The position numbers were made by a program, and so were the translations under genes. From the NCBI GenBank assembly GCA_028714995.1, contig JAQTLI010000001.1, positions 1 through 48,062 of the forward strand: a DNA stretch of 48,062 bases, given 5' to 3'. Source of the stretch: Methylobacter sp. (GTDB lineage: Bacteria > Pseudomonadota > Gammaproteobacteria > Methylococcales > Methylomonadaceae). A model generated the notes under the pieces. The model searched no databases. It was not told where the DNA came from and was given only the letters and a program-made list of their open reading frames with translations. Shown here one piece after another: positions 3,278-42,209 of the stretch. Within the stretch, counting starts at the first letter, position 1. The number at the start of each line of letters is the position of its first letter.

Positions 3278-3315
3278 GGGGTCTGCTCACGAAACGGAAA
3301 AAATCGTACGCTAAG
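3278..3315 (+). repeat. Tn3-family 38-bp terminal IR (Tn21/Tn501-like)
   Basis: GGGGTCTGCTCACGAAACGGAAAAAATCGTACGCTAAG. Confidence 0.9.
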
Positions 3316-20745: not shown

Positions 20746-20782
20746 GGGTATAGCTCTCGAAACGGACAAAATCGTACGCAAG
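20746..20782 (+). repeat. Degenerate Tn3-family IR (same subtype as 3278-3315)
   Basis: GGGTATAGCTCTCGAAACGGACAAAATCGTACGC-AAG aligns with the 3278 IR. Confidence 0.65.
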
Positions 20783-20804
20783 GGATGCTTGCTTGGCAGA
20801 GGCG

Positions 20805-24633: not shown

Positions 24634-24698
24634 TCATCAATTTGTTTTCGTACCGTTGGATTTCAGACCCCCGAATTCGGAAAAAATCGTACACTTAG
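24634..24698. repeat. Junction of a Tn1000-like IR (24634-24671, minus) and a truncated Tn501-like IR (24673-24698, plus)
   Basis: Reverse complement GGGGTCTGAAATCCAACGGTACGAAAAC abuts GAATTCGGAAAAAATCGTACACTTAG, which lacks its outer ~12 bp. Confidence 0.75.
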
Positions 24699-24763: not shown

Positions 24764-25879
24764 TCACGCCCCGGGTGCCTCTGGTCGTTCGCCGGTTGGG
24801 GCGAATATGGGGATGTCGTGCTGCCAAGATCCAACGCCCTCTATCTCAAGTAGGAAGCGGAACGGAAGCCAATTACCATTTTGTCCAGAGGAAAGTTGCT
24901 CGATGCTCTGAACACGTAATACGCTCTGCAACGGCGTGTAATCCTGCTTTGTGATTGAATCGTAATAGGGCACGCAGGCCAGCCGGATGACTTCCAAGTT
25001 GATCAGGCGCAGGAGCCATGGCGAATCTCGGAATAGATCGAAATACTCTTTGATCCGAGTTCCGAAGATCGGGTTGAATTGCATTTCTCCGCGAAAAGTA
25101 GATAGGCATGACCTAATCTTTTGGGGAAGGGCCGCCAAGCCTGTAACAGTGGCAAAGTCACCATTGACTGAGAAAAGGTCGTGCGCGTCGCTGAGCGCAA
25201 GATCAGTCGGAATATTGTGCGCGCTAGTGCGGGGAAAGCTTTTAAGCACCCGGCACGTAACAATGTAGCCAGCATCTGTCTTCTGCCACACGGGAGCGGC
25301 AGCCAGTTGTCGGCCATCGCCTAACGCGTTCACCAACACATAGCGGTCATACCTGTCGATACGATCAAAGCGCTCGCTAAACTTGATGAGCGCGGAAAGA
25401 TCACCAATGAGGAAGTGGTCGATGCGCAGCTGCCACTCACACTCAATAGTGCCAATTACTTCACCAATAAAGACCAAGTCTTGGCCAAGCGCCACGAAGT
25501 CTGTTTCCGTTCTAAGCCTGGAGCCACTAAGTTCTGAGGACACTTGGCTCTCATGATCTAACTTCATCTTGTGAAGAACGTCCGCTGTGTATCGCATCTC
25601 GTCCCTGTCAATCTCAGTGCTATGGTTTGCACATAACCAGATGCCGTTTTCAATGTGAGAACGTTGCTCTGGTGTCATCGAGAGGAGATAGCGACGAGAA
25701 CCTGGCGCAGCTCCATGGATATGGGCCGCTACCCCAATATTGACATGAGCAATAGGTGACTCATCACTAGGGCCTGAAGTTGGAGATCCACAACCAGGAA
25801 ACGAACACCGATGGTTTGCGCGGAGGCCAAGCACTCTTATCGTTTTTTTTGAGAAATTATCGCGGTTCGATCCTGCCAT
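24764..25879 (-). CDS. HNH endonuclease-domain protein with a C-terminal gp25/baseplate-wedge-like domain
   Basis: N-terminal CSFPGC...AAHI...NGIWLCANH..EID; C-terminal DLALSDAHDLFSVNGDFATVTGLAALPQKIRSCLSTFRGEMQFNPIFG. Confidence 0.75.
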   Translation of the reverse strand: MAGSNRDNFSKKTIRVLGLRANHRCSFPGCGSPTSGPSDESPIAHVNIGVAAHIHGAAPGSRRYLLSMTPEQRSHIENGIWLCANHSTEIDRDEMRYTADVLHKMKLDHESQVSSELSGSRLRTETDFVALGQDLVFIGEVIGTIECEWQLRIDHFLIGDLSALIKFSERFDRIDRYDRYVLVNALGDGRQLAAAPVWQKTDAGYIVTCRVLKSFPRTSAHNIPTDLALSDAHDLFSVNGDFATVTGLAALPQKIRSCLSTFRGEMQFNPIFGTRIKEYFDLFRDSPWLLRLINLEVIRLACVPYYDSITKQDYTPLQSVLRVQSIEQLSSGQNGNWLPFRFLLEIEGVGSWQHDIPIFAPTGERPEAPGA

Positions 25880-26236
25880 GCTATTTAGCCCCTTGGAAGC
25901 AAGCTGAGTTTGTCAATCGGATTTTCATCCGGTGGATTTCTAACGTTACTGTATAGGTTTTTTGGAAATGAAACGGGAAATCGGATTAAGAGTCGCCATT
26001 CACCTAAACTCCAGCACTGAGCAGCGCAGTTTCTTGAGAGAATTGCTGATCAATGTCCAAACTTGTTCGCCACTGGCGAGCTGGAATGACAGGAGCGTTT
26101 GACTGATGGGAGCAGTATGAATTGAGATGTTCACTACTGTTCTGCGAGGGATTGCGGAGGAAGCCCCCGCGGTCTACTCACCAACGGCTCGACTTTCAAA
26201 CATTATAGAGCATTGCGTGGCAGACGTTGATAAGGC

Positions 26237-27259
26237 TCAAATCTTAATCCGCTCAACCTCTTCGAGAGTGATCGCATCGTTGGTGCGGTCGTAGAGCTTG
26301 GTCGTGCGGGGGCTTTCGTGCGCGGCCATGGTCTGGGCGTTTTCGAGGGAGCCACCTTCCTCCAGATAGGCGGTGATACCAGTTGCCCGGAAGGTGTGGC
26401 AACCGATTGGGAAGGCGATCTCGGCTTCCAGGGCGCGTTTCCTGACCATGCGCCAGGCGTCGACGCGGCTTAGCCGTTTCTCGCTGAGGGTTCCAGTCTT
26501 GCGGAGAGCCGGGCGGAAGAGGGGACCACGCTTGTCATCGCAGAGGCCTGCGGCATTCAGATACGCATCGAGATAGGCCTCCAGCTTGTGATGGCAGGGC
26601 ATCTCATGACGCTTGCCACCCTTCTCGTGCAGGCGCAGCCACCAGCGTTTGCCCTCGGGGTAGTAGTCTTCGACCCGCATGGCGACGACGGCACCGATGC
26701 GGGCGAAGGCGTAGCACATGACGCTGATCAAGGCCTTGTCGCGCAGGTCGAGCAGGGTATCAGTCGGGATGCTGTCGAGGAGCAGCCTGGCCTGTTCGGC
26801 AGTGAGCACGGGCGTCTTGCCGCGTTTGACCACATGCTTCGGCCCGCGCACCGCATGCGCCGGGTTAGTGGCGACGATCTGGCCGGTGACCAGCCAGTCG
26901 AAGCACATGCGGATGGCGGCCAGGTGCTGCTTGACCGAGGGTTTTTCGTAGGTGTTTTGCAGGCTCTCGATATAGGCGGCGACATGCAGCGGTTCGATAT
27001 CGACCAGATCGAGAATATAGGCATCCTGTTCACACCAGGCGAAGAACCGGTTCACGGCCAGGTAATAGGCTGCACGGGTGTTCTTGTTGCGAATCGTGGC
27101 GGCGAAGAATTCCAAAAAACGCCGCGCGGCATTCTCGCCGTCGCGGGCAATGAGACTCGGCACGATCGTCCGATGACTTTCGATCCTGACCGCAAGAGAA
27201 CGATCCGGGCACTCCAGTTTTTGGAGTGTCTTAACAGTGGTGCCAGAAGTGTCGTTCAT
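26237..27259 (-). CDS. Tyrosine recombinase (XerC/D-like, phage integrase family)
   Basis: Catalytic residues FARIG (R), HEKGGK (K), HTFR, AAHES, KLYD (Y); purine-rich RBS before ATG 27259. Confidence 0.93.
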   Translation of the reverse strand: MNDTSGTTVKTLQKLECPDRSLAVRIESHRTIVPSLIARDGENAARRFLEFFAATIRNKNTRAAYYLAVNRFFAWCEQDAYILDLVDIEPLHVAAYIESLQNTYEKPSVKQHLAAIRMCFDWLVTGQIVATNPAHAVRGPKHVVKRGKTPVLTAEQARLLLDSIPTDTLLDLRDKALISVMCYAFARIGAVVAMRVEDYYPEGKRWWLRLHEKGGKRHEMPCHHKLEAYLDAYLNAAGLCDDKRGPLFRPALRKTGTLSEKRLSRVDAWRMVRKRALEAEIAFPIGCHTFRATGITAYLEEGGSLENAQTMAAHESPRTTKLYDRTNDAITLEEVERIKI

Positions 27260-27280
27260 GTTTCCCCCTTGTTGTCCCAA

Positions 27281-27316
27281 TTTAACGTAACATAACGTCC
27301 TTTATGTTACGTTAAA
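27281..27316. other. Probable recombination site of the adjacent tyrosine recombinase
   Basis: Perfect 15-bp arms with 6-bp spacer: TTTAACGTAACATAA-CGTCCT-TTATGTTACGTTAAA, dif-like core. Confidence 0.8.
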
Positions 27317-27451: not shown

Positions 27452-27489
27452 GGGGCAGTCGCAGAATTCGGAAAAAATAGTACGCTAAG
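27452..27489 (+). repeat. Tn501/Tn1721-like 38-bp IR
   Basis: GGGGCAGTCGCAGAATTCGGAAAAAATAGTACGCTAAG. Confidence 0.88.
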
Positions 27490-27944
27490 GCTTCGGAGTG
27501 AATCTATAGCTGTTAATCAGCGTCCAGTATTTACCAGTAAACAGCGTCATAATTGACCATGTAAATTATTATTACACTGTTTTTTAAGGTTCATTTGTTG
27601 GTGAGCCGGTAAAAATCGATGCTGAAAGTGGTAACTTTTGCACGCTGATTTCCAGGAATAAAAGCACAATGAGTAAAAAACAAGATACAGAAGCCAAAAA
27701 ACCATTGATATTTGATATTTGATATTTGCTATTGCCCTGTGTGCGATGCTCCACGCAATAAAGGCAATCACGCTAAATGTTCAAAGATTACGAAACTGAA
27801 ACACATGAAAGAAAGAGGAGAATTAAAATAAAAATAGCGGCATAAGGCTCATGTAATTTTGCTAATTATTTTAATTCTTAAGCAAACCATCATCTTGATG
27901 GGTTTAAATACGATTTCATATTGTTGACTCTTTGGAAATTCCAT

Positions 27945-28410: not shown

Positions 28411-29541
28411 TTACTGGTGGCGTAGGAACAGTAGATCGTTCCATTTCGCTGTTTCATAACCGTGCCTGGCTATCAGTTCAAACGTGCTTTCCGTGAGTTG
28501 ATTAAGGTCAGTAGGCCAATCGGCGGATGCTTGAATCATCTCGTCTGGAAGCCATTGATCCTCTGACAGCATGTTTTCATCAACTTGGCCTTTGTACTGC
28601 GCAGCAACCCTTCGTGGATTGGACCCGAGCTGAATATAACGTGCTACTTCTGGGTTTTCTTGAATAAAATTGACTAACGCACGTACCCTAAGCGCTCTAG
28701 CTTGGTCCATTGTAATGTCCACAATGCGCTTTGCCCGCCCTTTGTGAAACTGAGGTGGAAGTGGGGCTCGTTTTAATGGTGCGCCTGCATCTGACACGAT
28801 GAGGCGCTCAATAGATGATTTGAGCTTCTGTTTCCCGACATCGAAGATGGGCTCCATACCGAGGTTGTCATAAACGCCACCATCCATAATGTGAAGACGC
28901 TGAAAAGGTGGGGTTATCGGTTGTTCAGAGCCAGGAGCGTCACCCCATTGTAGCCGCTTGTACCATTGCAGGCTGGTTGCATCAACGCTAAGTGGGCCGA
29001 TTAGGAGAGGGAAAGCTGCTGAGGCGGCCATAGCCTCCGACACTTTAAAATGCTGAGCGTCCGCTTCTCCAAGTTCATAATCCCCACATTTTCCTTTTTT
29101 GAATCGGAACCTCCGCCCTGTTTCAGCGGTAGTTCCATTCGCTGACCAAACTGGTAAATTCGGCACTTCTTGTAATGTTGCACGCACATCCCACAGTTCT
29201 TCAATAGCCATAGCAAGTACGTTAGCCCTAGAGAATAAGTAGCGCCAGTTGCAAGGGCATATAAGCAAAAGTGTTGCATGTTTTTGGAGATTATTTTTGG
29301 TCAAAAGCTGACGAATTTCAGGAAGAACGGTTGTTAAATATTCCTGTGAACTAGGCCACTTCCAGCCAGAAATACGGAAAACCAGCCCCGTAAATAAACT
29401 GCCCCCAGATACAGTTGATATGTCAGTGATATATTCAAGTTTGTTCTGTTCGGCTAGCCACTTCAAGACACCAGCATGAAACACCATGGCACGGACACCA
29501 CCTCCAGACAACGCCAAGCCAATTTTTCCAGAAGTCGTCAT
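28411..29541 (-). CDS. Patatin-like phospholipase
   Basis: LALSGGGVRA oxyanion loop, STVSGG nucleophile, MDGGVYDNLG catalytic Asp. Confidence 0.92.
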   Translation of the reverse strand: MTTSGKIGLALSGGGVRAMVFHAGVLKWLAEQNKLEYITDISTVSGGSLFTGLVFRISGWKWPSSQEYLTTVLPEIRQLLTKNNLQKHATLLLICPCNWRYLFSRANVLAMAIEELWDVRATLQEVPNLPVWSANGTTAETGRRFRFKKGKCGDYELGEADAQHFKVSEAMAASAAFPLLIGPLSVDATSLQWYKRLQWGDAPGSEQPITPPFQRLHIMDGGVYDNLGMEPIFDVGKQKLKSSIERLIVSDAGAPLKRAPLPPQFHKGRAKRIVDITMDQARALRVRALVNFIQENPEVARYIQLGSNPRRVAAQYKGQVDENMLSEDQWLPDEMIQASADWPTDLNQLTESTFELIARHGYETAKWNDLLFLRHQ

Positions 29542-29542
29542 G

Positions 29543-31813
29543 CTAATCTTCCTTTACCGCAGCGAAGTGCCAACGTTCATCTTGTTCACCGACAATCAGC
29601 ATCAGTGCAGGCAAACCATCACGATGTAGTTCAATACCAAGATGAGCTAGTTGCAAAACATCAGCACTGCTGGCTGCTGCCGTTGATCCTGGTGGATGCG
29701 AGTGCCATTCGCCCAAGTAGCCAACGATATTTGCAGTTCTGCGCTGTACCTCACTTATAGTATTAGCAAGGCCCTCTATTCCTCTGGAGAAACCGCTTGT
29801 GTCGCCTTGACTATCTGATGGTGCGGGGAGGACATCAACAATATAAACATTCTTTTGCGTGAGATCGAAATAACCCAGTAGAACTCCGCCAGTTTCCGAC
29901 GGCAGCGCCTGTAGTCTAAGTTCTCTTACTTTCGACCGTAACCCATCATCCCAGACAACACTTAGTCCATTAATGTTGTATTTGAGAACGGGGTGGACAA
30001 ATAATGCATCCGTTGCAACTGCTCCGGATTCTGGATCGTAATGCCAAACCTTAATCGCCGCCGCTGGGTTTTCTGAGGCATGACGAATCTGCCGGGAAAG
30101 GTTTCCAGCATGAAGAGCCACCAATTCTCCGGAAATGACTGTCGACAAGTCTCTACAGCCTCCTCCTGTCCAAAGATAGCTTTTGTTGCCGTCAAGGTGG
30201 GCTTCGCCCCACGCTTGGTTGAGAATGCCCCTGTAATACTGAGATTCCACTCCATCCAGTCGAACTGAGCGACAGGCATTCTCCGCCAATAAAGCACAAC
30301 CGTTACCACTCGGAGTCAAGAATACGGATATTCCGCGAGGAAAATCATCCTGTGAAGCGTGCTCTCTGGGGTAGTCCAGGGTTGTGGTTACGTCAATGAC
30401 TAGCGCGGCATTCTTAAGGGCATCAATGACTTCTGTTGAATCAAAGTCAGTTGCACTTTTCGGTATTGCTCTTGTTTTGCTTCCAGTGCTACCCCAAAGC
30501 GCTTCATCGAGATATCGAACCACATCGGCCTTATTATGGCCGACAAATTGATCAAATGCAGTGTGCCGTGCCAAGTTGTGAGGCTTTACATGGTCAGGGT
30601 CAATGAGCGTCCATTCTCCCCATCCAGATCGGCTCCACAGGTTGAATATCTCACTACCAAGAGCACCAACTCCTGCAAGTACGCCTTTGGGGCCGGAACT
30701 CAGTATTCCTGAAGTTTGGCGGGCATACTCAGGGGTGAAGGGTTGGAGTATATCAATAGGTTCAAGTTCGACGCTTCGCCATGCGTCTGTCGGTTCTACC
30801 TGAATTCCAAGGTTATGCCGTAGGAGGTATTGGTTCTCGTATTTGTCGAGCACTCCGCCCTTAAGTCCGATCTCTTCAAGACTGATTGGCAGGAAATACG
30901 CCTTGTTATCAAATCTAGCAATATCGCTGCCCGCTTCTTTGAGCAACGGAACATTCAAAATCAGTATGGTTTTGATGTTATTGACCTTGAGCAAATTTCC
31001 CTCAACTCGCTGCCGAATCTCAGCAAACAGTTCTTTGATGAATGGAGCGCCTCGAGCATCAAGTGTGTCAGAGAGTTCTCCAAGATTCCGAGGAAAGTGC
31101 TCGATTCTCCCCTGAATCACAGAGTTTAGTCGAAGAGCAATGCAGGATGTGTTGAGTACTTGATCTGATACAGCGTCTACTGACCTTTGCATCAAACCAA
31201 CGATTGTTTGCCTGTTATTACCTCGATCTGGCCTGAATTCCAGAGCAAGCCGAAACTCCTTGTTATTGACCTTTTCGTCAAAGTCATGCGGCAGAACAAG
31301 TTCTTTTGGTGCACTGAAATAAAGTTGCTCGACTGGCTGATCCGAGCGGTGAAGCTGCTCTAATGCTGTCTGCTCTAACCACCAGAGGATGCGTTCTAAG
31401 TGCTTCTGTGGTGTCCAAGTCCTGGCAATAACCGGCCACGGTTCAAAGTAGAGACACAGACTAGATGGGGCTCCATTCAAAACGTGATTTTGGTGAGGGG
31501 TAAGCGGGAATCCGGTACGTAGCGCTCTAACTTCCGGCGGGCGGTTCACCTTATTGGAAAAACAAAGAGCAAAACGTTCTCGATACTCAATTCTGGGTGC
31601 ATTGTTTGGCGGTATCCGATCACACTCGCAATCCACAATCACTAGCTCAGAGTATCCATCAATATCTTCATACTTACGTACTTCGATAGATGTGAAAGAA
31701 CGATGGCTACGTACCGCAAACCAAGTCTGCCGAGCCGCATCGACTTTCATGTTAGTCGGGGACTCTCCTTCAAGAGGCTCACCAATTACAAAAAACTCGG
31801 CGGTCATCATCAA
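29543..31813 (-). CDS. E2-E1(ThiF)-JAB fusion (Cap2/Cap3-like ubiquitin-like conjugation and deconjugation protein)
   Basis: E2: PEVRALR..FP.TPHQN...SLCLY; E1: GVGALGS, DPD...HNLARH, GGGCRD; JAB: ETGG, GEWHSHP, SSAD. Confidence 0.92.
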   Translation of the reverse strand: MMMTAEFFVIGEPLEGESPTNMKVDAARQTWFAVRSHRSFTSIEVRKYEDIDGYSELVIVDCECDRIPPNNAPRIEYRERFALCFSNKVNRPPEVRALRTGFPLTPHQNHVLNGAPSSLCLYFEPWPVIARTWTPQKHLERILWWLEQTALEQLHRSDQPVEQLYFSAPKELVLPHDFDEKVNNKEFRLALEFRPDRGNNRQTIVGLMQRSVDAVSDQVLNTSCIALRLNSVIQGRIEHFPRNLGELSDTLDARGAPFIKELFAEIRQRVEGNLLKVNNIKTILILNVPLLKEAGSDIARFDNKAYFLPISLEEIGLKGGVLDKYENQYLLRHNLGIQVEPTDAWRSVELEPIDILQPFTPEYARQTSGILSSGPKGVLAGVGALGSEIFNLWSRSGWGEWTLIDPDHVKPHNLARHTAFDQFVGHNKADVVRYLDEALWGSTGSKTRAIPKSATDFDSTEVIDALKNAALVIDVTTTLDYPREHASQDDFPRGISVFLTPSGNGCALLAENACRSVRLDGVESQYYRGILNQAWGEAHLDGNKSYLWTGGGCRDLSTVISGELVALHAGNLSRQIRHASENPAAAIKVWHYDPESGAVATDALFVHPVLKYNINGLSVVWDDGLRSKVRELRLQALPSETGGVLLGYFDLTQKNVYIVDVLPAPSDSQGDTSGFSRGIEGLANTISEVQRRTANIVGYLGEWHSHPPGSTAAASSADVLQLAHLGIELHRDGLPALMLIVGEQDERWHFAAVKED

Positions 31814-32943
31814 CCTGCACGCGGCGGTGTAGAAGAAATTACTGCGGCTGCCCCTGTGATAGTTCTGCCAAGAAATCGGAGCCCACGTTCAGAGATTTCA
31901 AACTCTAAGGGATGCGGCTTACTCGCATTGGGCTCTTCCATAGTGACGTAAAATTTACGTCCTCCAACTTCCCGCAAGTACCTTTCGTACGTTTTCCTTG
32001 CTTGGATATGGGGCGGTTGTATGGCTTTATACATATCTGCTGTGTCGGGAATTGGATTGCTTAAACTCACGATATAGGCATCCTTTTGTCCCGCGCGTAA
32101 CAGTTCTTTTATGCCATCTTTCGGCTCAGTTTCTTTGTCTCCCTTCTCGTCCGAAAGCGCAAGGTAACTGCAATGGTGTGGAACATTTAAGAGATTCCAT
32201 TGCAGGCGGTCTAGCCTTTTGTGGAACTTAGTGGTTGAAACAATTTCTTCCAGCGCTTCCGACGTCGAGTCACCGACAGAGAAATAATCGGTTCTGTACC
32301 CGTTAACCTCAAACCTGATCTGAAAAATGAGCGAGGCATCGTTGCGCAAGATATCGCCCTCGTCGCAATGCTTCATAAAAGGAGAGTGACAGAAGAATTC
32401 GACATTATCGGCTTCCAAAGTAAAGCCTCGTGCTAATGTACCGGCGTCTGTAAAAAGTCCCTTGCGATCTTCAAAGGAGATGTCGTTCTGCTCCATCCAA
32501 TCTTTGAGAGCTTCTGGTTTCGAGAATACTTGAATCCCCTTCCCATCCCTTAGGCGTTTTCGTGCCTCCTGTCGAAGAAGTATATACTCAGCGCTTTGCT
32601 GGTCGTTACTCGCCTGTTCCAAGAGAACCGCTGCCGGAACCCACAACTCACGAATCTTTATGCGACCATTTCCCTTGTACTTATCTGCTTGCTCAAGCTC
32701 AAAGAACTCGGAAAATCCAGCGATGTGATCCTTGTCAGCGTGGGTAAAGGCAACGACATCAAAGTAGTCCCGTTTTGCATTATCAAGCTCATCACGTAGA
32801 CGTTTCTTGATATCAATTACCGGATGGCCGTCATCTTCTCCTTGAACCTGATGGTGGAAGTCGAACAGGAGCCGCTTCCCGTTATCAAGGATGATTTGGC
32901 TAGTGTCACCGTTGCCGACGGGATAAAAGACTACTTTGTGCAT
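31810..32943 (-). CDS. Metallo-beta-lactamase-fold (ComEC-like) hydrolase, 6A-MBL type
   Basis: FYPVGNGD, THADKDH, NDAS, GDS, PHHCS; RBS GGAG before ATG 32943; C-terminus PPRAG. Confidence 0.88.
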   Translation of the reverse strand: MHKVVFYPVGNGDTSQIILDNGKRLLFDFHHQVQGEDDGHPVIDIKKRLRDELDNAKRDYFDVVAFTHADKDHIAGFSEFFELEQADKYKGNGRIKIRELWVPAAVLLEQASNDQQSAEYILLRQEARKRLRDGKGIQVFSKPEALKDWMEQNDISFEDRKGLFTDAGTLARGFTLEADNVEFFCHSPFMKHCDEGDILRNDASLIFQIRFEVNGYRTDYFSVGDSTSEALEEIVSTTKFHKRLDRLQWNLLNVPHHCSYLALSDEKGDKETEPKDGIKELLRAGQKDAYIVSLSNPIPDTADMYKAIQPPHIQARKTYERYLREVGGRKFYVTMEEPNASKPHPLEFEISERGLRFLGRTITGAAAVISSTPPRAG

Positions 32944-33020
32944 ACGTGTTTCTCCATTAGAGTAGTGGTGTTCTGTTCCATTCCCGTTCACTTAACCAGA
33001 TGAACGAGAGTTTAAAAAAA

Positions 33021-33575
33021 TCAGCCGATTCGGTGGTAGGTGAATTCGACCCCCCCAGACTCAGCAACATCCTCACGACGTAGCAAGAAGCCCTGTTCCC
33101 AAAGTTGTTTAAACTTGGTACTCGCATTGGCAATCGATATATCTGGCATGGATGCCGCGAACTCAGATGCTCTCGTGCGCTCGCGCTTCAGAGCAAAGTT
33201 GAATGCGCCCAGTGTTCCTTGGCTTGGGGTGATCCCAATTACTTGCCCGTTTTTCCCTTCCCAGACCATTATCGGTTGCCCCTTTCGTTCAGCGGCAGCA
33301 TCCCAGTTCTCCAGCATGTCCTGATCGGCTAGATCAGTAAAACAGAAGCCTTTCTTGCCACGATAGCGGCGGGCAAGTTCGACAATCGTTTCAGATGCGA
33401 ATGAGATATCGACTCTGCGCACCTGATCAAGCGATACCTTAAAGGTCATAGTCCCAGGATTTGACTCCACAAAGTCAATCAGCTGCTGATATACCTTGCG
33501 GCCCTGATCTCGACCCCATCCCTCTTGGGAATCCATGAAGTCACGTAATTTTATGATGGCTGATTTCTCGTTCAT
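33021..33575 (-). CDS. STAS-like plus winged-HTH regulator (CapS-like)
   Basis: VSLDQVRRVDISFASE STAS phosphoacceptor motif; SIANASTKFKQLWEQGFL...GGVEFTY wHTH. Confidence 0.75.
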   Translation of the reverse strand: MNEKSAIIKLRDFMDSQEGWGRDQGRKVYQQLIDFVESNPGTMTFKVSLDQVRRVDISFASETIVELARRYRGKKGFCFTDLADQDMLENWDAAAERKGQPIMVWEGKNGQVIGITPSQGTLGAFNFALKRERTRASEFAASMPDISIANASTKFKQLWEQGFLLRREDVAESGGVEFTYHRIG

Positions 33576-33582
33576 TGAACAC

Positions 33583-33611
33583 ATTAAATCGGATTTATCT
33601 GTTGGTGTCAA
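33583..33611 (-). promoter_or_regulatory. Sigma70-type promoter for the STAS-wHTH gene, likely leaderless
   Basis: TTGACA (33611-33606), 17 nt, TTTAAT (33588-33583), 7 nt, ATG (33575). Confidence 0.6.
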
Positions 33612-34515
33612 GCCTAAACGTGAAGCAAATATGTGTTCCCCAAATTAATGGAAGGCCATCGTAGCAATAGGCAGTATTTGGTTTGTAACCTTCCTTGCCG
33701 GGGGTGAGGAGCACACGGATGTTCGGAAGTCTGACATCAAGTTCACCGTTGTACTTTATAGCCTTTGCCGCACTTCCTTTAAGTCCACAGCCGCGATCCG
33801 TGCCATGCCGGGAGATGCCCTGTCGAAATATCTCCACCAGCAAATCTATGTCAGACAGATTCTCTAAGGAAGGAAATTCCGTTTTGATGGCCGGTCTTAA
33901 TGTACTCATAATGCCAAGACCACTATCTGAAACCGCGACTTTAACGCGATCACCACGAGGGTAAACCTGCAAAGCAGCATACCCATCAATCTGGGTGCTG
34001 CTGTGCGAAAAAATGTTATCAATCAGTTCAGCGAAGATTGTCCAAGCTGCGCCCTCTAGTCCTTTCGCATCGGGCCGGTTACCGCATGAATCCATCATCG
34101 CGTCGGTAAGACGTGATGGTAAATCTACGTCCCTATCTTTTGGGTTGATACTGGCGATTTCGACTAGCCTAGTATTCGTTCCCCCATAAATCTCAGCCGC
34201 GGAGAGCGACGGCCGAGCCGGTAAGACATCTACGTCTTTTGCCAGATGGTCGAAGAATCCCATTCTATCGAGGTACCCCATAGTACCCGCCTCTCCTTCC
34301 TCAAATTCAAGCCGTACGCGACGCATGGAGAGGCTGAGTTGGTTGATCAAAGATAGGAGCCTGACAGCGCTGTCGACCATGATCCTGCAGCCCGTTGGAA
34401 ACCGGAACAACACTTCATAGACGCCCGGTCCATGAGGTGCGCAACTGCTGCGTAATGTACTTTCTAGGGCTGATGCATCGATCCATGCCGAGGGAAACAC
34501 AATTTGACAAATCAT
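33595..34515 (-). CDS. STAS-like plus GHKL anti-sigma-type kinase (CapK-like)
   Basis: GYLDRMGFF, ELIDNIFSH (N box), VSDSGLGI (G1), RGCGL (G2); no His phosphoacceptor domain. Confidence 0.8.
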   Translation of the reverse strand: MICQIVFPSAWIDASALESTLRSSCAPHGPGVYEVLFRFPTGCRIMVDSAVRLLSLINQLSLSMRRVRLEFEEGEAGTMGYLDRMGFFDHLAKDVDVLPARPSLSAAEIYGGTNTRLVEIASINPKDRDVDLPSRLTDAMMDSCGNRPDAKGLEGAAWTIFAELIDNIFSHSSTQIDGYAALQVYPRGDRVKVAVSDSGLGIMSTLRPAIKTEFPSLENLSDIDLLVEIFRQGISRHGTDRGCGLKGSAAKAIKYNGELDVRLPNIRVLLTPGKEGYKPNTAYCYDGLPLIWGTHICFTFRLDTNR

Positions 34516-34609
34516 GATCTAAATCCTGTGTCCCTTATAATCGTACAGAAGTTACCGAGCCAATCTGCCAATCCCATTGTTATCCCACTCTCTCCAAAAA
34601 ACCAGGCTA

Positions 34610-36328
34610 TCATGCAACTTCCTCTAACGCCGGAGCCAAGGCTTCATGCAGCACGGCTTCGAGAAACCGACGGCTGTCGGTCTCAGTGGTGTTGAGTTGG
34701 GCTTCCAGTTGGTCGCATAGCGCCATTAGTTCATCGACCTTGGTGACGATGCGGGTTTGCTCGGCGAGGGGTGGTAAGGGAATCAGAACTGCGTTCAATA
34801 TTTCAAGGTTGATGTTTTTCTGGGCAGTGGCTGGAGCGAACTCAAGCAGATTAGCCTTTGCCGTCCGCACAAAATACTCGAAATAGCGAGCGTTTTGAAA
34901 CATCGAGGCAGGTATGAACCCAACAACACTATCAGGGAAACATGCATCGAAGCTAAGAATTCCGCTATCAGCAATGTTAGCGGCAATAGTGATGCAGAGC
35001 GTCCCAGTAGGCCACTTCATACTTTGTGCGAGTCCAACATCGTTGTATTTGTTGGTATAAGTTTGGATTACGCCCTGAGAGCGTGCGACATCTCCCGTCT
35101 GAATAAGCAAATGATTGCCGCCTTCAAACAACTTTGAATCATTCCGTGGACGATGTTTTGATTTACCTCTCCCAAAGATTCCAAGTTCAGGAAACCTTGC
35201 CCATGACCAGCCTAACGGTAGAACAAATGGAGCTTGCTCCAAGTCGACGTCAGGCAGTGCAGCGCCTTTTTTTCTCGCCCCATCCTTTACCAACCCAGCA
35301 TTCTCTTCCTGAATCCGCTTGAGCAATTCAGCAGCCGGCTCGTCGTTGGGGTCTTGTTCCACCAGTTTGCCGCGCACGGCTAGGTTAAGGATGGTTTGAC
35401 GCAATTGCTTAATGTGTGCCGGACGCTTGGTGATGCGCGGCAGATGGTTGAAGATGAAGCAGACGTGTTCTCGGAAGGCTTCTTCGTCATCGACTGGCAG
35501 GTTAAGCCGTTGCAAACTTGCCGCCCCCAGACGATCAAGACTTTGCTCCCGCTCGGTTTTCGCTGCCTCCAACTGGTCGCACAATGTCATCAGTTCATCG
35601 ACTTTGGCGACAATGCGGTATTGTTCTGTTAGGGGCGGGATGGGTAGAAAAATATTCGCAATCGATTCACGATTTAGTGTCGCTCCTTTAATCGCGCCCT
35701 TTGTATCGCCCTGTCGTGAAAACTGAGGAAGCACCTTGAAGAGGTAGCTGTCCAGCTCTGGCAAATGTGGATAAATAGAAATGATCGCTTCATTATGGAA
35801 AGCCGAAACACCTAGCCTCGAAATCTTTCCAATAGTCAGCTTGAAGCTCATGATCATAGTGCCGACGTGTGCTGGCTCCGAACTAAAGACTTGCTTTTTA
35901 GCCTTTTCGCTGACAGTTTCCTTAGTGGTGATAACATCACCGCCATCTTTCATATCGGCGATGCTAACCCACGGGTAGTCGCCGGTATTCCAAAAACTCA
36001 AATCATGACGAGATGGCGTCCTGCCAGCCGAGAAATCCGCTATTCCTCCGAAGCGGACCCATTGCCAATTATTAGGCAGTTCAAAGGGATATTCCTCAAT
36101 TTCAACCGGCGACTTTTGTTCCTGCTTTCTGATATCCCCATCTTTCACCAACCTGACCTTCTCGGCCTCAATCCGTTTGAGTAATTCTACCGCTGGTTCG
36201 TCGTTTGGGTCTTGATCCACTAGCTTGCCGCGCACGGCAAGGTCGAGGATGAAGCGGCGCAGGCGCTGGATAGCGTCGGGGGCTTCACTGAGGCGGTCAA
36301 AGTGTTGTAGCAGGTATTCGGCGTTCAT
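34610..36328 (-). CDS. hsdS: Type I R-M specificity subunit
   Basis: Two TRDs with repeated ILxLAVRGKLVxQDPNDEPA and PxPPLxEQxRIVxKVDELM conserved regions. Confidence 0.95.
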   Translation of the reverse strand: MNAEYLLQHFDRLSEAPDAIQRLRRFILDLAVRGKLVDQDPNDEPAVELLKRIEAEKVRLVKDGDIRKQEQKSPVEIEEYPFELPNNWQWVRFGGIADFSAGRTPSRHDLSFWNTGDYPWVSIADMKDGGDVITTKETVSEKAKKQVFSSEPAHVGTMIMSFKLTIGKISRLGVSAFHNEAIISIYPHLPELDSYLFKVLPQFSRQGDTKGAIKGATLNRESIANIFLPIPPLTEQYRIVAKVDELMTLCDQLEAAKTEREQSLDRLGAASLQRLNLPVDDEEAFREHVCFIFNHLPRITKRPAHIKQLRQTILNLAVRGKLVEQDPNDEPAAELLKRIQEENAGLVKDGARKKGAALPDVDLEQAPFVLPLGWSWARFPELGIFGRGKSKHRPRNDSKLFEGGNHLLIQTGDVARSQGVIQTYTNKYNDVGLAQSMKWPTGTLCITIAANIADSGILSFDACFPDSVVGFIPASMFQNARYFEYFVRTAKANLLEFAPATAQKNINLEILNAVLIPLPPLAEQTRIVTKVDELMALCDQLEAQLNTTETDSRRFLEAVLHEALAPALEEVA

Positions 36329-37782
36329 CGCAGCAGCGCCTCGGCTAGAATAGACTTGAGCTGGTCCCGTAAACTGTCGGTTTTCTGCTCATCCTGTTCC
36401 AACTTGACCAGCAGCTCTTGCGGATCGCCGTGGTCATTGGCCGCGATATGCGGGTTTTTGAAGTCGAGGTTGTAATTGCGCGCCTTGATTTCATCGAGGC
36501 CGACTTTCCATGAGACTTCGGATGCCTGCCGATCTATACGTTCCGTTCCACCCCACCACTCCACACAGCCTTGCATGTGATCGACCTTGATCGGTCTAGT
36601 CATCGAATAGGCTTTTTGGCCTTTCGGTACACGGTGCTCATAGAACCAGATGTCCTGCGTCGGTTCGCCCTTCTCGAAGAACAGCAGGTTAGTGCCGACG
36701 CTGGCATAGGGTTTGAACACGCTACTGGGCAGGCGAACGATGGTGTGCAGGTTACATTCTTCCAGCAGGTGTTCCTTGAGGCGAGTTTTAACTCCTTCGC
36801 CAAACAAGGAGCCATCCGGCAACACGATGGCGGCGCGGCCGCCTGGCTTCAAGAGGCGAATGAACAGTGCCAGAAACAGGTCGGCTGTTTCCTTAGTGCG
36901 GAAATGAGCCGGAAAGTTGGACTCAATGCCGTCTTCTTCTTTTCCGCCAAACGGCGGATTGGTGAGGATGATGTCCACTCGGTCTGATTGGCCATAGCTA
37001 ATATAAGGCCGTGCCAAGGTGTTGTCGTGGCGCACGAAGCTGGGGTCTTCAATGCCGTGCAATAGCATATTGGTGATGCAGAGCATGTGCGGGAGTTGTT
37101 TTTTCTCCACGGCTCGCAGGCCGGCTTGCATGGCCTGTTCGTCCGCGACCTTTTTTACATAGCGGTTGCGCATGTGGCGAATGGCACAGGTGAGAAAACC
37201 GCCTGTGCCACAGGAAGGGTCGAACAGGATTTCTCCCGGCTTGGGGTCGATACGATCCACCATGAAAGCAGTGACGGCACGGGGGGTGTAATACTCACCC
37301 GCGTTGCCCGCGCTTTGCAAGTTGTTGAGCAGTTGTTCGTAAATGTCACCGAAGTGCTTGCGTTCTGACAAGTCGTTGAAATCGACGCTGCTGATTTTGT
37401 TGATGACCTGCCTTAGCAGCTGACCAGACTTCATATAGTTGTAGGCGTCTTCAAACACGCTGCGCACCACGCGGCTGCGATTGGCGTTCTGGCCTGTTGT
37501 TGGCAGTTCCTTGAGCTTTGGAAATAGCTCGGTATTGATGAAGGTTAGCAGCGCGTCACCGGTGATGCCTTCCGGATCAGCTGCCCACGTCCGCCATTGC
37601 AGGGCATACGGGATCGGCGAGCGGTAGTTATCCTGCATCACCTCCAATTGTTGATCCTGATCGTCGATGATTTTGAGAAAGAACATCCAGCAAAGCTGGG
37701 ACAGGCGCTGAGCGTCACCATCGACGCCGACATCTTGGCGCATGATGCCTTGAATGGATTTAACGGTATTTCTTGCAGACAT
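36325..37782 (-). CDS. hsdM: Type I R-M N6-adenine methyltransferase
   Basis: GEYYTPR, DPSCGTGGFL, TNPPF. Confidence 0.96.
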   Translation of the reverse strand: MSARNTVKSIQGIMRQDVGVDGDAQRLSQLCWMFFLKIIDDQDQQLEVMQDNYRSPIPYALQWRTWAADPEGITGDALLTFINTELFPKLKELPTTGQNANRSRVVRSVFEDAYNYMKSGQLLRQVINKISSVDFNDLSERKHFGDIYEQLLNNLQSAGNAGEYYTPRAVTAFMVDRIDPKPGEILFDPSCGTGGFLTCAIRHMRNRYVKKVADEQAMQAGLRAVEKKQLPHMLCITNMLLHGIEDPSFVRHDNTLARPYISYGQSDRVDIILTNPPFGGKEEDGIESNFPAHFRTKETADLFLALFIRLLKPGGRAAIVLPDGSLFGEGVKTRLKEHLLEECNLHTIVRLPSSVFKPYASVGTNLLFFEKGEPTQDIWFYEHRVPKGQKAYSMTRPIKVDHMQGCVEWWGGTERIDRQASEVSWKVGLDEIKARNYNLDFKNPHIAANDHGDPQELLVKLEQDEQKTDSLRDQLKSILAEALLR

Positions 37783-37785
37783 GGA

Positions 37786-40236
37786 TTAGGAGACTTCCTG
37801 ATAGAGAGCGGCTTGCAGTTCATGGACAGCGTCTTCAAAGCTGGCTCGTGAACCAAATTCTTTGATGAGCTGGAGCGGTGTTCCCATCGTGTTGAAGGGG
37901 GAAATTTCAAGAATATGGACGTTATCCAGCCCGCTGACCACGCCTTCATCTTGATACTTGGTGAGCAGAGCTTCAAGTACGGCCCTGGCTTGCTGGCCGT
38001 ACTTGGTGAATACGTCACGTTTGCGCACGTTGTTAGCTCGGTCGCGACGCGTGAGCGGCGGCTGATCGAAGGCAATGTGGCAAATCAGGTCGAAGGGGTC
38101 GAGGTCTTTGCCGACCTCTTCCATCAACGGCTCCAGAAACAGCCCCTCTTCCGCCAATTCTTCAATAATGGCCTCCTTGCGCTCGTCAGACTTCCAGCGG
38201 GCAAGGAACTTATCAAGGCTGGAGAAATGGGCGCGGATAGCCTTACGGCTGTAATCGCGCAGGGATTCAGTCACCAGCTTGCCGTTTTCGTCGAGGTATT
38301 CCACCTGCTCGATGATGACGGTCACAGGCTTGCCTTTGACATAGAATTTGGTGGGCGGCCGGTCAGTACCGGGCGGCAGAGTAATATCTGGCGGATCGAC
38401 GACTACAGTTTCGCCTTCGCCGGGCTGAGGCGGAATGGGGTCTCCGTCATCAGGTGGCGGTGTGACATCCGGCGGGGTGACCGGATCACCTTCGCCCGGT
38501 TCGTAAATCTGCACCGGTTCGCCGTCAAATTCAGGGTCGGCAAAGTGATTGGTGGCTTTGCGGAAGTCGATCAGGGTGAAGTAATACTTCTTGGTGTCTT
38601 CATGGACGCGGGTGCCGCGTCCAACAATTTGCTTGAATTCGGTCATGGAGCCAATTTCACGGTCGAGCACGATCAACCGGCAGGTTTGCGCATCGACCCC
38701 CGTAGAAAGCAGGCGTGAGGTGGTGACAATGACTGGGTATTTGGCTTCCGGGTCAATAAAGTTGCCAATCTGATCCGTCCCCTCCTTATCGTTGCCGGTA
38801 ATGCGCATGACATAGCGGGCGTTCTGTTGGACGAGGTCTTGATTTTCATTGATGAAGGCTTGGCGCATTCGGGCAGCGTGTTCGGTATCCACGCAAAAGA
38901 CAATGGTTTTCTGGAATCGGTCGCCACTTTGCTTGAGGTAGTCCGATACCCATTTGGCGACGCGCTTGGTGCGCTCGTCGATCACAAGGTTCCGGTCAAA
39001 ATCCTTTTGATTGTAGATGCGGTCTTCGATTTCATGGCCATTTTGGTCGGTTTCCCCTGACTGAGGACGGTAGCCTTCTACATCCACATCGAGATGCACC
39101 TTGATGACTTTGTAGGGGGCAAGGAAGCCGTCACGAATGCCCTGCTTGAGCGTGTAGGTGTAAACCGGCTCGCCGAAGTAATGGATATTTGAAACATACT
39201 CGGTTTCTTTGGGCGTGGCGGTGAGGCCAATTTGCGTGGCGTCAGAAAAGTATTCGAGGATTTCTCGCCAAGCCGAATCTTCGGCAGCACTGCCCCGATG
39301 ACATTCGTCGATGACGATGAGATCGAAAAAGCCGGGTGAAAACTCGCGAAACAGCTTTTGCCGCTCCTCCGGGCCGGTGATGGCTTGATACAGTCCGAGA
39401 TAGATTTCGTAGGCGGTATCAATGCGGCGGATTTTGTCGATGGCTGTCGTAATGACCTCCACGCTGCCATCAGCCCGTTCAATGGTTTTGGCTCCGGTGC
39501 TGAGTTTGGCCATGGCCGCGCCGAAGGGGCGGAAGTCGTTGACCATAGTCTGGTCGATCAGCACATTGCGGTCAGCCAAAAACAGGATGCGTTTTTTCTG
39601 TCCGGCCCTCCAAAGCCGCCAGATGATCTGAAATGCGGTGTAGGTCTTGCCGGTGCCGGTAGCCATGACCAGCAAAATGCGGTTTTGACTCTTGGAGATG
39701 GCTTCAACCGTGGCATTGATGGCATTGCGCTGGTAATAGCGCGGTTCCTTGCCGCTGCCATCGTCGTAATAGGGCTGCAGGACGATCTTCTCCTGCTCGG
39801 GGACTAGCCCCTTCCATGCGCAGTATTGCACCCATAACTTGGCGGGGCTTGGGAACGTGTTTAAGGCAAGATTGGTTTCCATTTGCGTGCTCAGGCCGGT
39901 ACTGTCGTGAAACACGAAGCCGTCGCCGTTGGATGAAAATACAAAGGGAATATCTAGCGTGGCGGCGTAATCCAGCGCCTGCTGCATCCCGTCGCCCACG
40001 GCGTGGTTGTTATCCTTGGCTTCGATCAAGGCAATCGGAAAGTGCTGGTAATAGAGGATGTAATCAGCCCGCTTGGCCTTACCCCGCGTAACCAACTTGC
40101 CCCGCACGATGATGCGGCCTTTGGTGAAAAAGACTTCGCGACGAATCTGGAGTGCCTCATCCCATCCGGCCTGAATGACGGCTGGGGTAATGAACTTGGC
40201 GCAAATATCGGATTCGCTCAGGGTCTTTTTGCTCAT
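37786..40236 (-). CDS. hsdR: Type I R-M restriction subunit (EcoAI/EcoEI-like)
   Basis: ADY...IEAK nuclease, MATGTGKT, DECHR, TATP, QIVGRGTR, EcoEI-type C-terminus. Confidence 0.96.
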   Translation of the reverse strand: MSKKTLSESDICAKFITPAVIQAGWDEALQIRREVFFTKGRIIVRGKLVTRGKAKRADYILYYQHFPIALIEAKDNNHAVGDGMQQALDYAATLDIPFVFSSNGDGFVFHDSTGLSTQMETNLALNTFPSPAKLWVQYCAWKGLVPEQEKIVLQPYYDDGSGKEPRYYQRNAINATVEAISKSQNRILLVMATGTGKTYTAFQIIWRLWRAGQKKRILFLADRNVLIDQTMVNDFRPFGAAMAKLSTGAKTIERADGSVEVITTAIDKIRRIDTAYEIYLGLYQAITGPEERQKLFREFSPGFFDLIVIDECHRGSAAEDSAWREILEYFSDATQIGLTATPKETEYVSNIHYFGEPVYTYTLKQGIRDGFLAPYKVIKVHLDVDVEGYRPQSGETDQNGHEIEDRIYNQKDFDRNLVIDERTKRVAKWVSDYLKQSGDRFQKTIVFCVDTEHAARMRQAFINENQDLVQQNARYVMRITGNDKEGTDQIGNFIDPEAKYPVIVTTSRLLSTGVDAQTCRLIVLDREIGSMTEFKQIVGRGTRVHEDTKKYYFTLIDFRKATNHFADPEFDGEPVQIYEPGEGDPVTPPDVTPPPDDGDPIPPQPGEGETVVVDPPDITLPPGTDRPPTKFYVKGKPVTVIIEQVEYLDENGKLVTESLRDYSRKAIRAHFSSLDKFLARWKSDERKEAIIEELAEEGLFLEPLMEEVGKDLDPFDLICHIAFDQPPLTRRDRANNVRKRDVFTKYGQQARAVLEALLTKYQDEGVVSGLDNVHILEISPFNTMGTPLQLIKEFGSRASFEDAVHELQAALYQEVS

Positions 40237-41288
40237 AATTCCTTCTTTAAATCCTTTGTGTCCTCGTGAAAATCTCCCTCTTCTTCAGGGGCGTTCTGGA
40301 GATAAAATTCATGGAGTTTTTCCCGTAGAAGCTTTTTATCCGGCAATTGAGTTTGGTATTCAGCGATTAAAGCCGGGGAAAGGGTGCGACTCAGGGAATA
40401 TTCAACCACTTCGTCATCTTTGCTGGCACAGAGCAACACGCCGATAGCAGGGTGCTCATGGGACTTGCGGACATCACGATCCAAGGCTTCGAGATAGAAA
40501 GCCAGTTTCCCAAGATATTCGGGTTCAAATCGCCCAACTTTCAACTCAATCGCAACTAGACAATTGAGTCCGCGATGAAAAAGCAGCAGATCAAGCGCGA
40601 AATCCCGTCCCCCCACCTGCAAAGGATATTCAGAGCCGACAAAACAAAAGTCGCGGCCTAATTCAATCAAGAAATTCTTTAACTGACTCACTAAGCCTCG
40701 GTGCAAATCGGCCTCGGTGTGGCCGTCTGGCAACCCCAGAAAATCCACCATATAGGCATCTTTGAAAATGTTCACGCCGGTCGGGTAAGTTTGTGTCACC
40801 AGTGGTGACACTTTTGGCGGACTGAGCACGGTGCGTTCAAATAACGCGGTTTTGAACTGGCGTTCCAGTTCGCGCTTGCCCCAGTTTTCTTGAATTGACT
40901 GCCGCAGATAAAATTCACGTTCCTCTGGGTGTTTGCTCTGGCTGAGAATAATGAGATTGTGAGTCCAAGATAATTGTCTCACCAGGGGCGAGAGTTTTTC
41001 ATCATCCCGGTAGGCCTCATAAAACTGCCGCATCCGAAATAAATTACGGCGGGTAAAGCCTCGAAGCCCTGGCTGGGTCTGCGCGATGTAAGCCGCCAAT
41101 TGATCGACGACACCGTCACCCCATTCGGCGCTTTTGATCTTGCGACTGATGGTTTCACCAACGTGCCAATAAAGGTCGATCAAAGCGGTATTGATTGCCT
41201 GAAACGCTTTTTGACGAGCCGCCTCAATGAGGTTTGTCACCTCGTGAAAAGCAACTGCGGCAATTTGGTCTGGCGTTGTCTTGCTCAT
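40233..41288 (-). CDS. yhcG: YhcG/DUF1016 PD-(D/E)XK nuclease-domain protein
   Basis: LYWHVG, LSWTH, FKDAY, ELGRDF, DLLLFHRGLNCLVAIELK; overlaps the hsdR start. Confidence 0.92.
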   Translation of the reverse strand: MSKTTPDQIAAVAFHEVTNLIEAARQKAFQAINTALIDLYWHVGETISRKIKSAEWGDGVVDQLAAYIAQTQPGLRGFTRRNLFRMRQFYEAYRDDEKLSPLVRQLSWTHNLIILSQSKHPEEREFYLRQSIQENWGKRELERQFKTALFERTVLSPPKVSPLVTQTYPTGVNIFKDAYMVDFLGLPDGHTEADLHRGLVSQLKNFLIELGRDFCFVGSEYPLQVGGRDFALDLLLFHRGLNCLVAIELKVGRFEPEYLGKLAFYLEALDRDVRKSHEHPAIGVLLCASKDDEVVEYSLSRTLSPALIAEYQTQLPDKKLLREKLHEFYLQNAPEEEGDFHEDTKDLKKEL

Positions 41289-41642: not shown

Positions 41643-42203
41643 CTATGAGTCAGCACCAGCGTATTTATATAGTGTGGTGCGTGAAACATGGTAGCGCTCA
41701 GCAACATTGGTGATATTAACCGATGGATCACGCATTAACGCCTTAACTTCTCGAATCTGCTTTTCATCAAGCGCCGGTTTTCTTCCGCCTTTCCTACCTC
41801 TGGCTCTCGCTGCAGTCAGACCGGCATGGGTACGTTCGCGAATTAGATTTCTTTCAAATTCAGCCAAAGCCGCAAAAATATGAAAAGTCAGTTTGCCGTT
41901 AGCATTAGTGGTTTCAATCTTTTCTGTCAGGCTTTCAAAGCCAATACCATCACGTTCAAGTTCGGCAACAATCCGCACCAGGTCGGGCAACGATCGCCCC
42001 AACCTGTCTAAGCGCCAAACAACCAAGGTATCCCCTGCCCTCAATGCCTTGCGGCATTGCTCAAGTTCAAGCCGTTCCATATTTTTGCCACTGGCTTTTT
42101 CTTCGTAAATAACATCGCAGCCGGCCTTTTTTAAGGCATCGTTTTGGAGGTCCAAATGTTGATCATCGGTCGATACTCTGGCATAACCAATCTTTTGATT
42201 CAT
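41643..42203 (-). CDS. Serine recombinase (resolvase/invertase, TniR/Pin-like)
   Basis: KIGYARVST, WRLDRLGRS, AEFER, GGRKP, VSRTTLY. Confidence 0.94.
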   Translation of the reverse strand: MNQKIGYARVSTDDQHLDLQNDALKKAGCDVIYEEKASGKNMERLELEQCRKALRAGDTLVVWRLDRLGRSLPDLVRIVAELERDGIGFESLTEKIETTNANGKLTFHIFAALAEFERNLIRERTHAGLTAARARGRKGGRKPALDEKQIREVKALMRDPSVNITNVAERYHVSRTTLYKYAGADS

Positions 42204-42209
42204 GAACAC

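Follow-up and report, generated by a model that had tools for sequence, protein, structure and literature searches.

Why would a bacterium encode a nuclease joined to a building block of the phage tail? The question is raised by a gene on the minus strand of a 48,062-nt stretch of Methylobacter sp. DNA (the window). From the letters alone, an original prediction had read this gene as a new single-gene anti-phage system, consisting of an N-terminal HNH nuclease, a middle domain, and a gp25-like baseplate domain domesticated as a sensor of contractile-tailed phages. Mechanism aside, the gene is a further member of a known family, that of the E. coli defense system DS-7.

The gene and its mobile setting

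The frame encoding the protein (P0001) is unbroken across 371 codons, and one contig of 3040 nt, whose run is a possible source, spans it with zero differences. The features of the locus are as follows (position in the window, strand, description, and basis).

24673..24698, plus: 26-nt repeat copy 3′ of P0001, presumably a Tn21/Tn501-like end (repeat search)
24764..25879, minus: DS-7-family gene encoding P0001, 371 aa (ORF list; 48% identical to DS-7 across 360 aa, E 6e-124)
24797..25219, minus: gp25/sheath-initiator domain (PF10934/DUF2634-like), residues 221-361 (Pfam on the family, PHROG, VIA, BFVD)
25232..25519, minus: middle beta-barrel, residues 121-216, suggestive of Hcp/tail tube (VIA, best Z 7.2)
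25523..25867, minus: Cap5-type zinc-binding HNH domain, residues 5-119 (PADLOC, PDB profile search, VIA, conservation)
25721-25723, minus: codon of H53, equivalent to DS-7 H52 (alignment to DS-7)
25889..25894, minus: AAGGGG, Shine-Dalgarno-like, 9 nt 5′ of the ATG (sequence)
26237..27280, minus: XerD-like tyrosine recombinase 5′ of P0001, mobile context outside the system (window ORF annotation)
27281..27316, no strand: perfect 15-bp inverted repeat with a 6-nt spacer, 5′ of the recombinase (repeat search)
27464..27489, plus: second, direct copy of the 26-nt repeat (repeat search; contigs of three of four runs stop matching at 27490-27493)
28411..41288, minus: defense cluster with patatin, 6A-MBL (cap2_3 and MBL), HATPase, type I R-M, and YhcG/PDC-S02 (Pfam/PADLOC; context)

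A 267-aa database gene call at the same locus (P0003) lacks the HNH domain and was rejected in favor of the longer frame, whose start follows a ribosome-binding motif and whose N-terminus is conserved. No promoter consensus was found 5′ of P0001, and the gene forms a single-gene unit separated by 357 nt from the upstream recombinase gene.

DS-7 (working id SVIR, WP_225403053.1, 368 aa, from E. coli) is discovered system 7 of DefensePredictor (PMC13092281, Science 2026; preprint 10.1101/2025.01.08.631726). The original prediction was therefore wrong to hold that no described system has this architecture: the supplement (files 7 and 9) gives HHpred domains of DS-7 as HNH (7RWK, 5-122) and sheath initiator (8ENV, 225-350; PF10934). 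“A phage baseplate protein” is named among the defense domains that are newly validated, in the main text of PMC13092281, whose accessible part does not otherwise discuss DS-7. The DS-7 sequence is the ORF of two of our family loci, L085/L086, and equals P2-EC46 ORF2, the “putative lysogenic conversion protein” CAD54902.1; the L085 ORF was matched to the supplement's DS-7 sequence by script over the first 48 residues and by eye over the remainder. P0001 aligns collinearly with the translated L085 ORF at the identity given above, and its H53, which aligns to H52 of DS-7, is invariant in 150 of 150 homologs. DS-7 protects E. coli MG1655 against phage Bas60 (PMC13092281, Table S7), and the predicted single-gene anti-phage role is thus borne out through a validated homolog. 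P0001 is very probably a DS-7-family defense gene, and its similarity to DS-7 makes it likely that P0001 itself protects against phage. dN/dS was 0-0.43 in 18 of 18 domain-by-pair comparisons (six pairs, all three domains), and all three domains of the family are, as judged from these ratios, under purifying selection.

Direct 26-nt repeats flank P0001 and the tyrosine recombinase (two matches; 0 of 100 shuffles reach two), and we take the repeat to resemble a Tn21/Tn501-type transposon end. The 15-bp inverted repeat is likely the site of the recombinase. Because contigs break at the right-hand repeat, and one contig of a second sample tracks the window up to 24538 and then continues in different sequence, P0001 looks like variable cargo; no excision joint between the repeats was found among the assembled contigs. 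The 3.35-Mb genome is fragmented, with the window as its largest contig and one copy of the P0001 gene, and the middle and gp25 domains together (hereafter, the module) were found in 0 of 40 relatives searched. As originally noted, no phage structural genes were present among the 29 other window ORFs scanned (108 are listed), and the mobile ends beside a defense island correspond to the repeats, the recombinase, and the cluster at 28411-41288. No CD-NTase cyclase adjoins P0001 among the window ORFs scanned.

The window holds further elements. The transposon-end-like motif occurs in four copies of the same orientation (3297-3315, 20765-20783, 24673-24698, and 27464-27489), one with three mismatches, and no inverted partner was found in the window. 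The region 28411-32991 (minus) carries a 6A-MBL system, whose cap2_3 (E2-E1-JAB) and MBL-fold proteins both exceed the NCBIfam cut-offs. Immediately after the system come a patatin gene and a small ORF of 99 aa, and upstream of it lie an unknown of 196 aa and a HATPase. At 34610-41288 (minus), an EcoEI-like type I R-M system is preceded by a YhcG/DUF1016 (PDC-S02) gene, and a serine resolvase (41643-42209) adjoins. A 2597-aa protein encoded at 4822-12615 (minus), with a SpvB-like N-terminus, TcdB/TcB midN, FG-GAP, and RHS repeats by Pfam, is of the Rhs/TcB-TcC-like toxin type and has a resolvase alongside. The contig also carries two UmuD/LexA-like genes, SRAP, a two-component system, and RND and cation-efflux genes, and is plasmid- or island-like.

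The three domains

The AF2 model of P0001 had a pLDDT of 90.6 and a pTM of 0.88. At the N-terminus, the motifs C25-x4-C30, AAHI (51-54), and NGIWLC (78-83), matches of PADLOC CBASS/SAVED-HNH effector models to residues 6-119 (E 1e-24 to 1e-16), and structural similarity to Cap5 7rwk (VIA: Z 14.2, rmsd 2.1, 104 aligned) confirm a zinc-binding HNH of the defense-effector type, as first predicted. Among 150 aligned homologs, HNH is the most conserved domain, with its zinc-binding and catalytic positions C25, C30, H53, N78, C83, H86, and D91 at 95-100%. Inter-domain covariation (MI-APC, 150 sequences) proved mostly phylogenetic noise and was discarded.

The C-terminal domain carries the gp25-like pattern DLALSDAHDLFSVNGDFATVTGLAALPQKIRSCLSTFRGEMQFNPIFG at residues 225-273. 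Pfam run on P0001 alone gave no hit at E ≤ 0.01; of 112 family members, 65 matched PF10934 (Sheath_initiator) at E ≤ 0.05, the best at 1.5e-6, and the PF10934 scores displayed in the Pfam scan of extended module proteins described below were under the curated cut-off. PHROG baseplate families 120, 975, 261, and 43 matched P0001 with E-values of 4e-7 to 3e-3. The VIA matches of the P0001 model include 6u5b, the sheath initiator of pyocin R2 (Z 9.0, rmsd 2.9, 99 aligned), and the gp25-like structure 2ia7 (Z 8.3, rmsd 3.2, 106 aligned). Many DUF2634/gpW models in BFVD, as well as T4 gp25, also matched. The structural check thereby upheld the proposed gp25/GPW/XkdS-like assignment. IraD bound to RssB matched at Z 5.6. 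The gp25 signature residues G264, E265, and G273 are 83-99% conserved among the 150 homologs. In the VIA alignments, sheath initiators of assembled tails align only up to residue 347-352, whereas crystal gp25 2ia7, TssE, and IraD align as far as 363-365; on this basis, the C-terminal strand of the model may fill the sheath-arm site, making it a candidate autoinhibition switch.

Between the two lies a domain whose presence had been predicted correctly and whose size had not (about 96 aa rather than about 110 aa). Predicted alone (pLDDT 90.8), it returned phage-tail, T6SS, or CIS structures, by title, in 44 of the top 50 VIA rows; the best match was Hcp1 4hkh (Z 7.2, rmsd 2.8, 88 aligned), and these tube-fold matches have 2-18% identity and fall below the tool's caution line of Z 8. 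PilZ/FMN split barrels matched at Z 4.8-5.5, the PilZ proteins YcgR and MrkH at Z 5.2-5.5. Foldseek against BFVD gave nothing at E ≤ 1e-3, and a middle-domain profile had 0 matches to PDB sequences at E ≤ 10 and none to the panel phage ORFs. The resemblance of the modeled domain to the Hcp/tail-tube fold is suggestive only. The domain rows and accessible main text of PMC13092281 do not mention a middle domain of DS-7.

The module, its partner domains, and its genomic neighborhoods

The family search returned 518 proteins at E ≤ 1e-3, with one match among proteins longer than 650 aa; most of the 120 matches listed are full-length, and those named are mostly from Proteobacteria. A profile of the module found 573 representatives. 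Of 153 module-bearing proteins examined, 74 had HNH, 40 had other extensions, and 39 were module-only or fragments. Pfam assigned to 45 extended module proteins TIR (12), SEFIR (1), metallophosphoesterase (2), kinase (2), caspase (1), PNP (1), trypsin with SLOG (1), and resolvase (1) domains, together with class III cyclase (4), GGDEF (1), and HTH (2) domains, the last three not being immunity-specific and lone metagenomic fusions possibly being gene-calling artifacts; ten of the 45 received no effector call by Pfam or PADLOC. The module was complete in each of eight extended proteins checked by eye. On a FastTree module tree of 97 tips, from which 24 unlabeled tips were pruned and 33 short ones excluded, the minimum number of changes was five for TIR, three for metallophosphoesterase, and three for cyclase. 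An ESM Atlas search with the module scored 0.75 and is a lead only; a search with DS-7 gave two clusters, unnamed or HNH. Separately, P0140, P0253, and P0271 are module-only proteins of about 250 aa that start at the middle domain and represent effector-less versions or fragments.

Sensors, SAVED and Avs among them, are usually laid out as a constant module to which different toxic enzymes can be joined. By analogy, the module with its swappable effectors presents a sensor-like pattern, and we read it as the sensor for that reason; that it senses phage is probable. We propose more tentatively, at somewhat under even odds, that the tube-like and gp25 domains form a general exapted “mini-baseplate” pattern-recognition module that would nucleate on phage sheath or tube assembly and is joined to at least ten other partner domains. 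DS-7 would then be the first member put to the test in a family of sensors made from the very virion parts they detect. Effector swaps on the DS-7 module do not appear in the accessible main text or supplement rows of PMC13092281.

No partner gene was conserved across 67 loci, the largest shared neighbor cluster comprising five loci. Neighbors of family genes include Wadjet, CBASS, DRT5, Qat, DSR1, bSEFIR, viperin, and R-M genes. The defense-island enrichment suggested as a check on the homologs was not significant: PADLOC matched 25 of 125 neighbors and, among control ORFs, 16 of 116 (p = 0.23), where the neighbors scanned were 125 of 942 ORFs from 33 loci and the controls came from 20 random regions of the Methylobacter genome, one hitting a Dnd island. 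At ≥70% profile cover, the counts were 15 versus 6 (p = 0.07), and by locus 10/33 versus 4/20 (p = 0.53). Within this control set (L154-L173) lie genes for Dnd phosphorothioation and one of HerA type (L159, L162).

Family genes are AT-richer than their flanks in 38 of 52 loci. Prophage copies lie next to integrases or antisense among tail genes. The original prediction had counted homologs in prophage tail operons against it; copies do occur within prophage tail regions (L080, L085/L086, and L091/L092), yet they are always antisense to the tail genes. A second gp25-like gene nearby was seen only in L085/L086 among the 67 loci, where the prophage retains its own gpW. P2-like myophage prophages carry the family gene, the DS-7 gene itself occupying the P2 Z-region moron site (P2-EC46 ORF2), and such carriers must escape self-triggering.

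Several loci deserve separate mention. A distant homolog (L091 7920-9155; L092 5638-6873) lies antisense between baseplate-hub and sheath genes of a myophage-like tail cluster. Split or interrupted copies with HNH and module in separate frames (L110 7992-9097, L052 7472-8580, L044, L048, and L023) reflect decay or a two-gene form. In the P2 Z-region, a second moron matching phrog_34061 (L085 8860-9921, minus; P2-EC46 ORF1, L174 2118-3119) is convergent to DS-7 and is possibly a further defense gene or a self-immunity gene.

Phage Bas60 and the proposed mechanism

Cap5 nucleases are activated by oligomerization. We propose, with a probability of about 0.5, that P0001 and DS-7 are mini-baseplate mimics that would bind tail assembly intermediates and thereby activate the nuclease. 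The middle domain, whose predicted fold resembles a tail tube, and the tail-derived gp25 domain would imitate the platform of tube initiator and sheath initiator, an arrangement described for phi92 (PMC13450770, as far as accessible). Late in infection, the mimic would capture sheath or tube subunits of a contractile-tailed phage; capture would cluster the HNH domain or lift its autoinhibition, as in Cap5 oligomerization; and the activated HNH would degrade DNA, aborting the infection. We infer each of three parts, namely the module as sensor, HNH activation by clustering or release, and the abortive outcome; that the ligand is a part of the contractile tail is about an even call. This is our best explanation, against which stand the four other panel myophages without listed protection, the non-significant enrichment, the prophage carriers, and a tube match below Z 8.

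Bas60 is a Justusliebigvirus, a phi92-like myophage whose genome has sheath and sheath-initiator genes. Four other phages considered here, T4, RB69, Bas50, and Bas63, are contractile-tailed. These four also belong to the 24-phage panel, and none has a SVIR row in the accessible Table S7 (PMC13092281). Among the 38 SVIR occurrences in that table, the sole screen row with SVIR as the system is Bas60, at a -log EOP of 2.70 (PMC13092281), bearing out the expected link to a contractile-tailed phage. The gp25 profile of the family scored the sheath initiator of Bas60 highest (17.7 bits), ahead of a P2-like gpW (11.8), Bas50 (10.8), T4 (7.9), and Bas63 (7.0), a ranking that took in four of the five panel myophages (without RB69) and one P2-like gpW; the blocked phage would rank first among the panel myophages by chance in one case of four, and the sequence ranking is weak evidence. 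Bas60 sensitivity may also be general rather than specific to DS-7, because seven systems in the screen target this phage, its empty-vector titer spans three logs (PMC13092281), and its group is unusually R-M-sensitive (PMC8594841). A complex prediction pairing residues 122-366 of DS-7, its module, with a sheath like that of Bas60 (467 of 468 residues identical) scored 0.00 and counts neither way. Rows labeled “DS-7A/7B” in Table S9 were set aside, as their values are those given for the two-gene DS-6 in the text, pointing to older numbering (PMC13092281). Neither PMC13092281, as available, nor the openly readable literature yielded binding, trigger, or escape-mutant data on DS-7, and our literature search found no paper on its mechanism or on gp25-fused effectors, which subscription papers may contain.

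A less likely reading, though a serious one, keeps DS-7 as a sensor-effector whose module no longer binds tails; what it senses instead would be a different protein of the phage, a host protein under guard, or, by way of a PilZ-like split barrel, a nucleotide signal. Repurposing of the gp25 fold has a precedent (IraD with RssB, Z 5.6), the middle domain matches PilZ YcgR and MrkH at Z 5.2-5.5, and cyclase or GGDEF domains occur among the module partners; moreover, the accessible table lists no block for four of the five panel myophages, and myophage prophages tolerate the gene. However, tube/Hcp structures rank above PilZ (Z 7.2 versus 5.5), G264, E265, and G273 remain 83-99% conserved, the sole known target is a myophage with the top-ranked sheath initiator, and a tube-like domain beside a gp25 domain reproduces neighbors in real baseplates (PMC13450770, accessible text).

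The histidine mutant proposed as a check of the nuclease is already in print for DS-7. From the pLAND plasmid, the source of the 2.70 above as well, DS-7 gave -log EOP values of 1.33 and 5.60 in repeats on Bas60, whereas H52A gave 0.48 and 0.26 (PMC13092281, Table S7), thus losing most of the protection. Because H52A retains the baseplate domains yet loses most protection, DS-7 requires the nuclease, and pure poisoning of assembly, part of the original prediction, is unlikely. The loss is consistent with an improbable alternative that requires nuclease activity as well as structural mimicry, in which the protein would take the place of phage gp25 in progeny baseplates and bring its nuclease to the packaged genome or the next host, so that virions would be non-infectious and the first cell would not be killed. 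The gp25 fold is intact, as this would demand, but the partners TIR/SEFIR (NAD-cleaving), kinase, caspase, and PNP are better suited to the infected cytoplasm, and the gp25 domain lacks the long C-terminal arm by which phi92 gp139 holds the wedge (PMC13450770, accessible text). The same mutant bears on a dominant-negative decoy that would halt tail assembly in the manner of Tab/Rta, with the nuclease dispensable: the intact gp25 fold, the module-only proteins (26 of 153 hits, some beginning at the module and possibly fragments), and the precedent of tail-assembly blockers (PMC10884400 and PMC11838301, as far as accessible) would fit, but the 0.26-0.48 log of protection left in H52A largely refutes it for DS-7, the most conserved domain is HNH, and we regard it as very improbable. 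Hardly credible is a role outside phage defense, whether as an orphan T6SS/eCIS-loaded toxin (Hcp-like and TssE-like adaptor with effector) or as a structural prophage gene, as suggested by the Hcp and TssE matches and the copies among tail genes, given that DS-7 protects MG1655 from phage (PMC13092281, accessible part), that no immunity or secretion neighbor is conserved across 67 loci, that tail-region copies are antisense, and that only L085/L086 have a second gp25-like gene nearby.

Returning to the mini-baseplate mimic, what is new here is the tentative tube likeness of the middle domain and the swapping of effectors; P0001 itself is one more DS-7 homolog. The published dissection of DS-7, as far as available, consists of one HNH mutant, and the anatomy of P0001 points to a testable mechanism. 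If the module does sense tail assembly, phage structural proteins would have been turned into bacterial immune receptors, and its fusions to TIR, caspase, kinase, and other domains would amount to a list of candidate defense systems.

Comparison with known systems

P0001 shares with DS-7 the single-gene organization, the collinear HNH and sheath-initiator domains, and the equivalent histidine (H53/H52), but is 52% divergent, comes from a non-enteric host, and occupies a transposon-like cargo site rather than a P2 moron site. Its HNH is of the same subfamily and fold as that of CBASS Cap5 (7rwk at Z 14.2; effector models of PADLOC), although SAVED-HNH models cover only residues 5-133, and P0001 has neither SAVED nor a cyclase partner, its C-terminal part being tail-derived. 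Residues 221-361 share the fold and the G-E-x4-P-x2-G signature of the sheath initiators gp25/gpW/TssE/XkdS (T4 gp25, pyocin PA0617, and phi92 gp139); in P0001, however, they are joined to a barrel domain and an effector, and the gene lies outside any tail operon. Tab/Rta, in the accessible descriptions, are likewise encoded by mobile elements and aim at tail assembly, but they target the tape measure protein without needing a nuclease, whereas DS-7 needs H52. DSR2 is reportedly activated by a phage tail tube protein. Tail proteins also activate the fused toxic enzymes of the Schlafen pSlfn5 (tail assembly chaperone) and of HepS (tail tip J) (PMC13056530 and PMC13434031, accessible text). By analogy, DS-7 and P0001 likely follow the same logic, in which a tail protein switches on a fused toxic enzyme; the sensors of DSR2, pSlfn5, and HepS are host-type folds, whereas the sensor proposed for DS-7 and P0001 would be copied from the tail proteins themselves.
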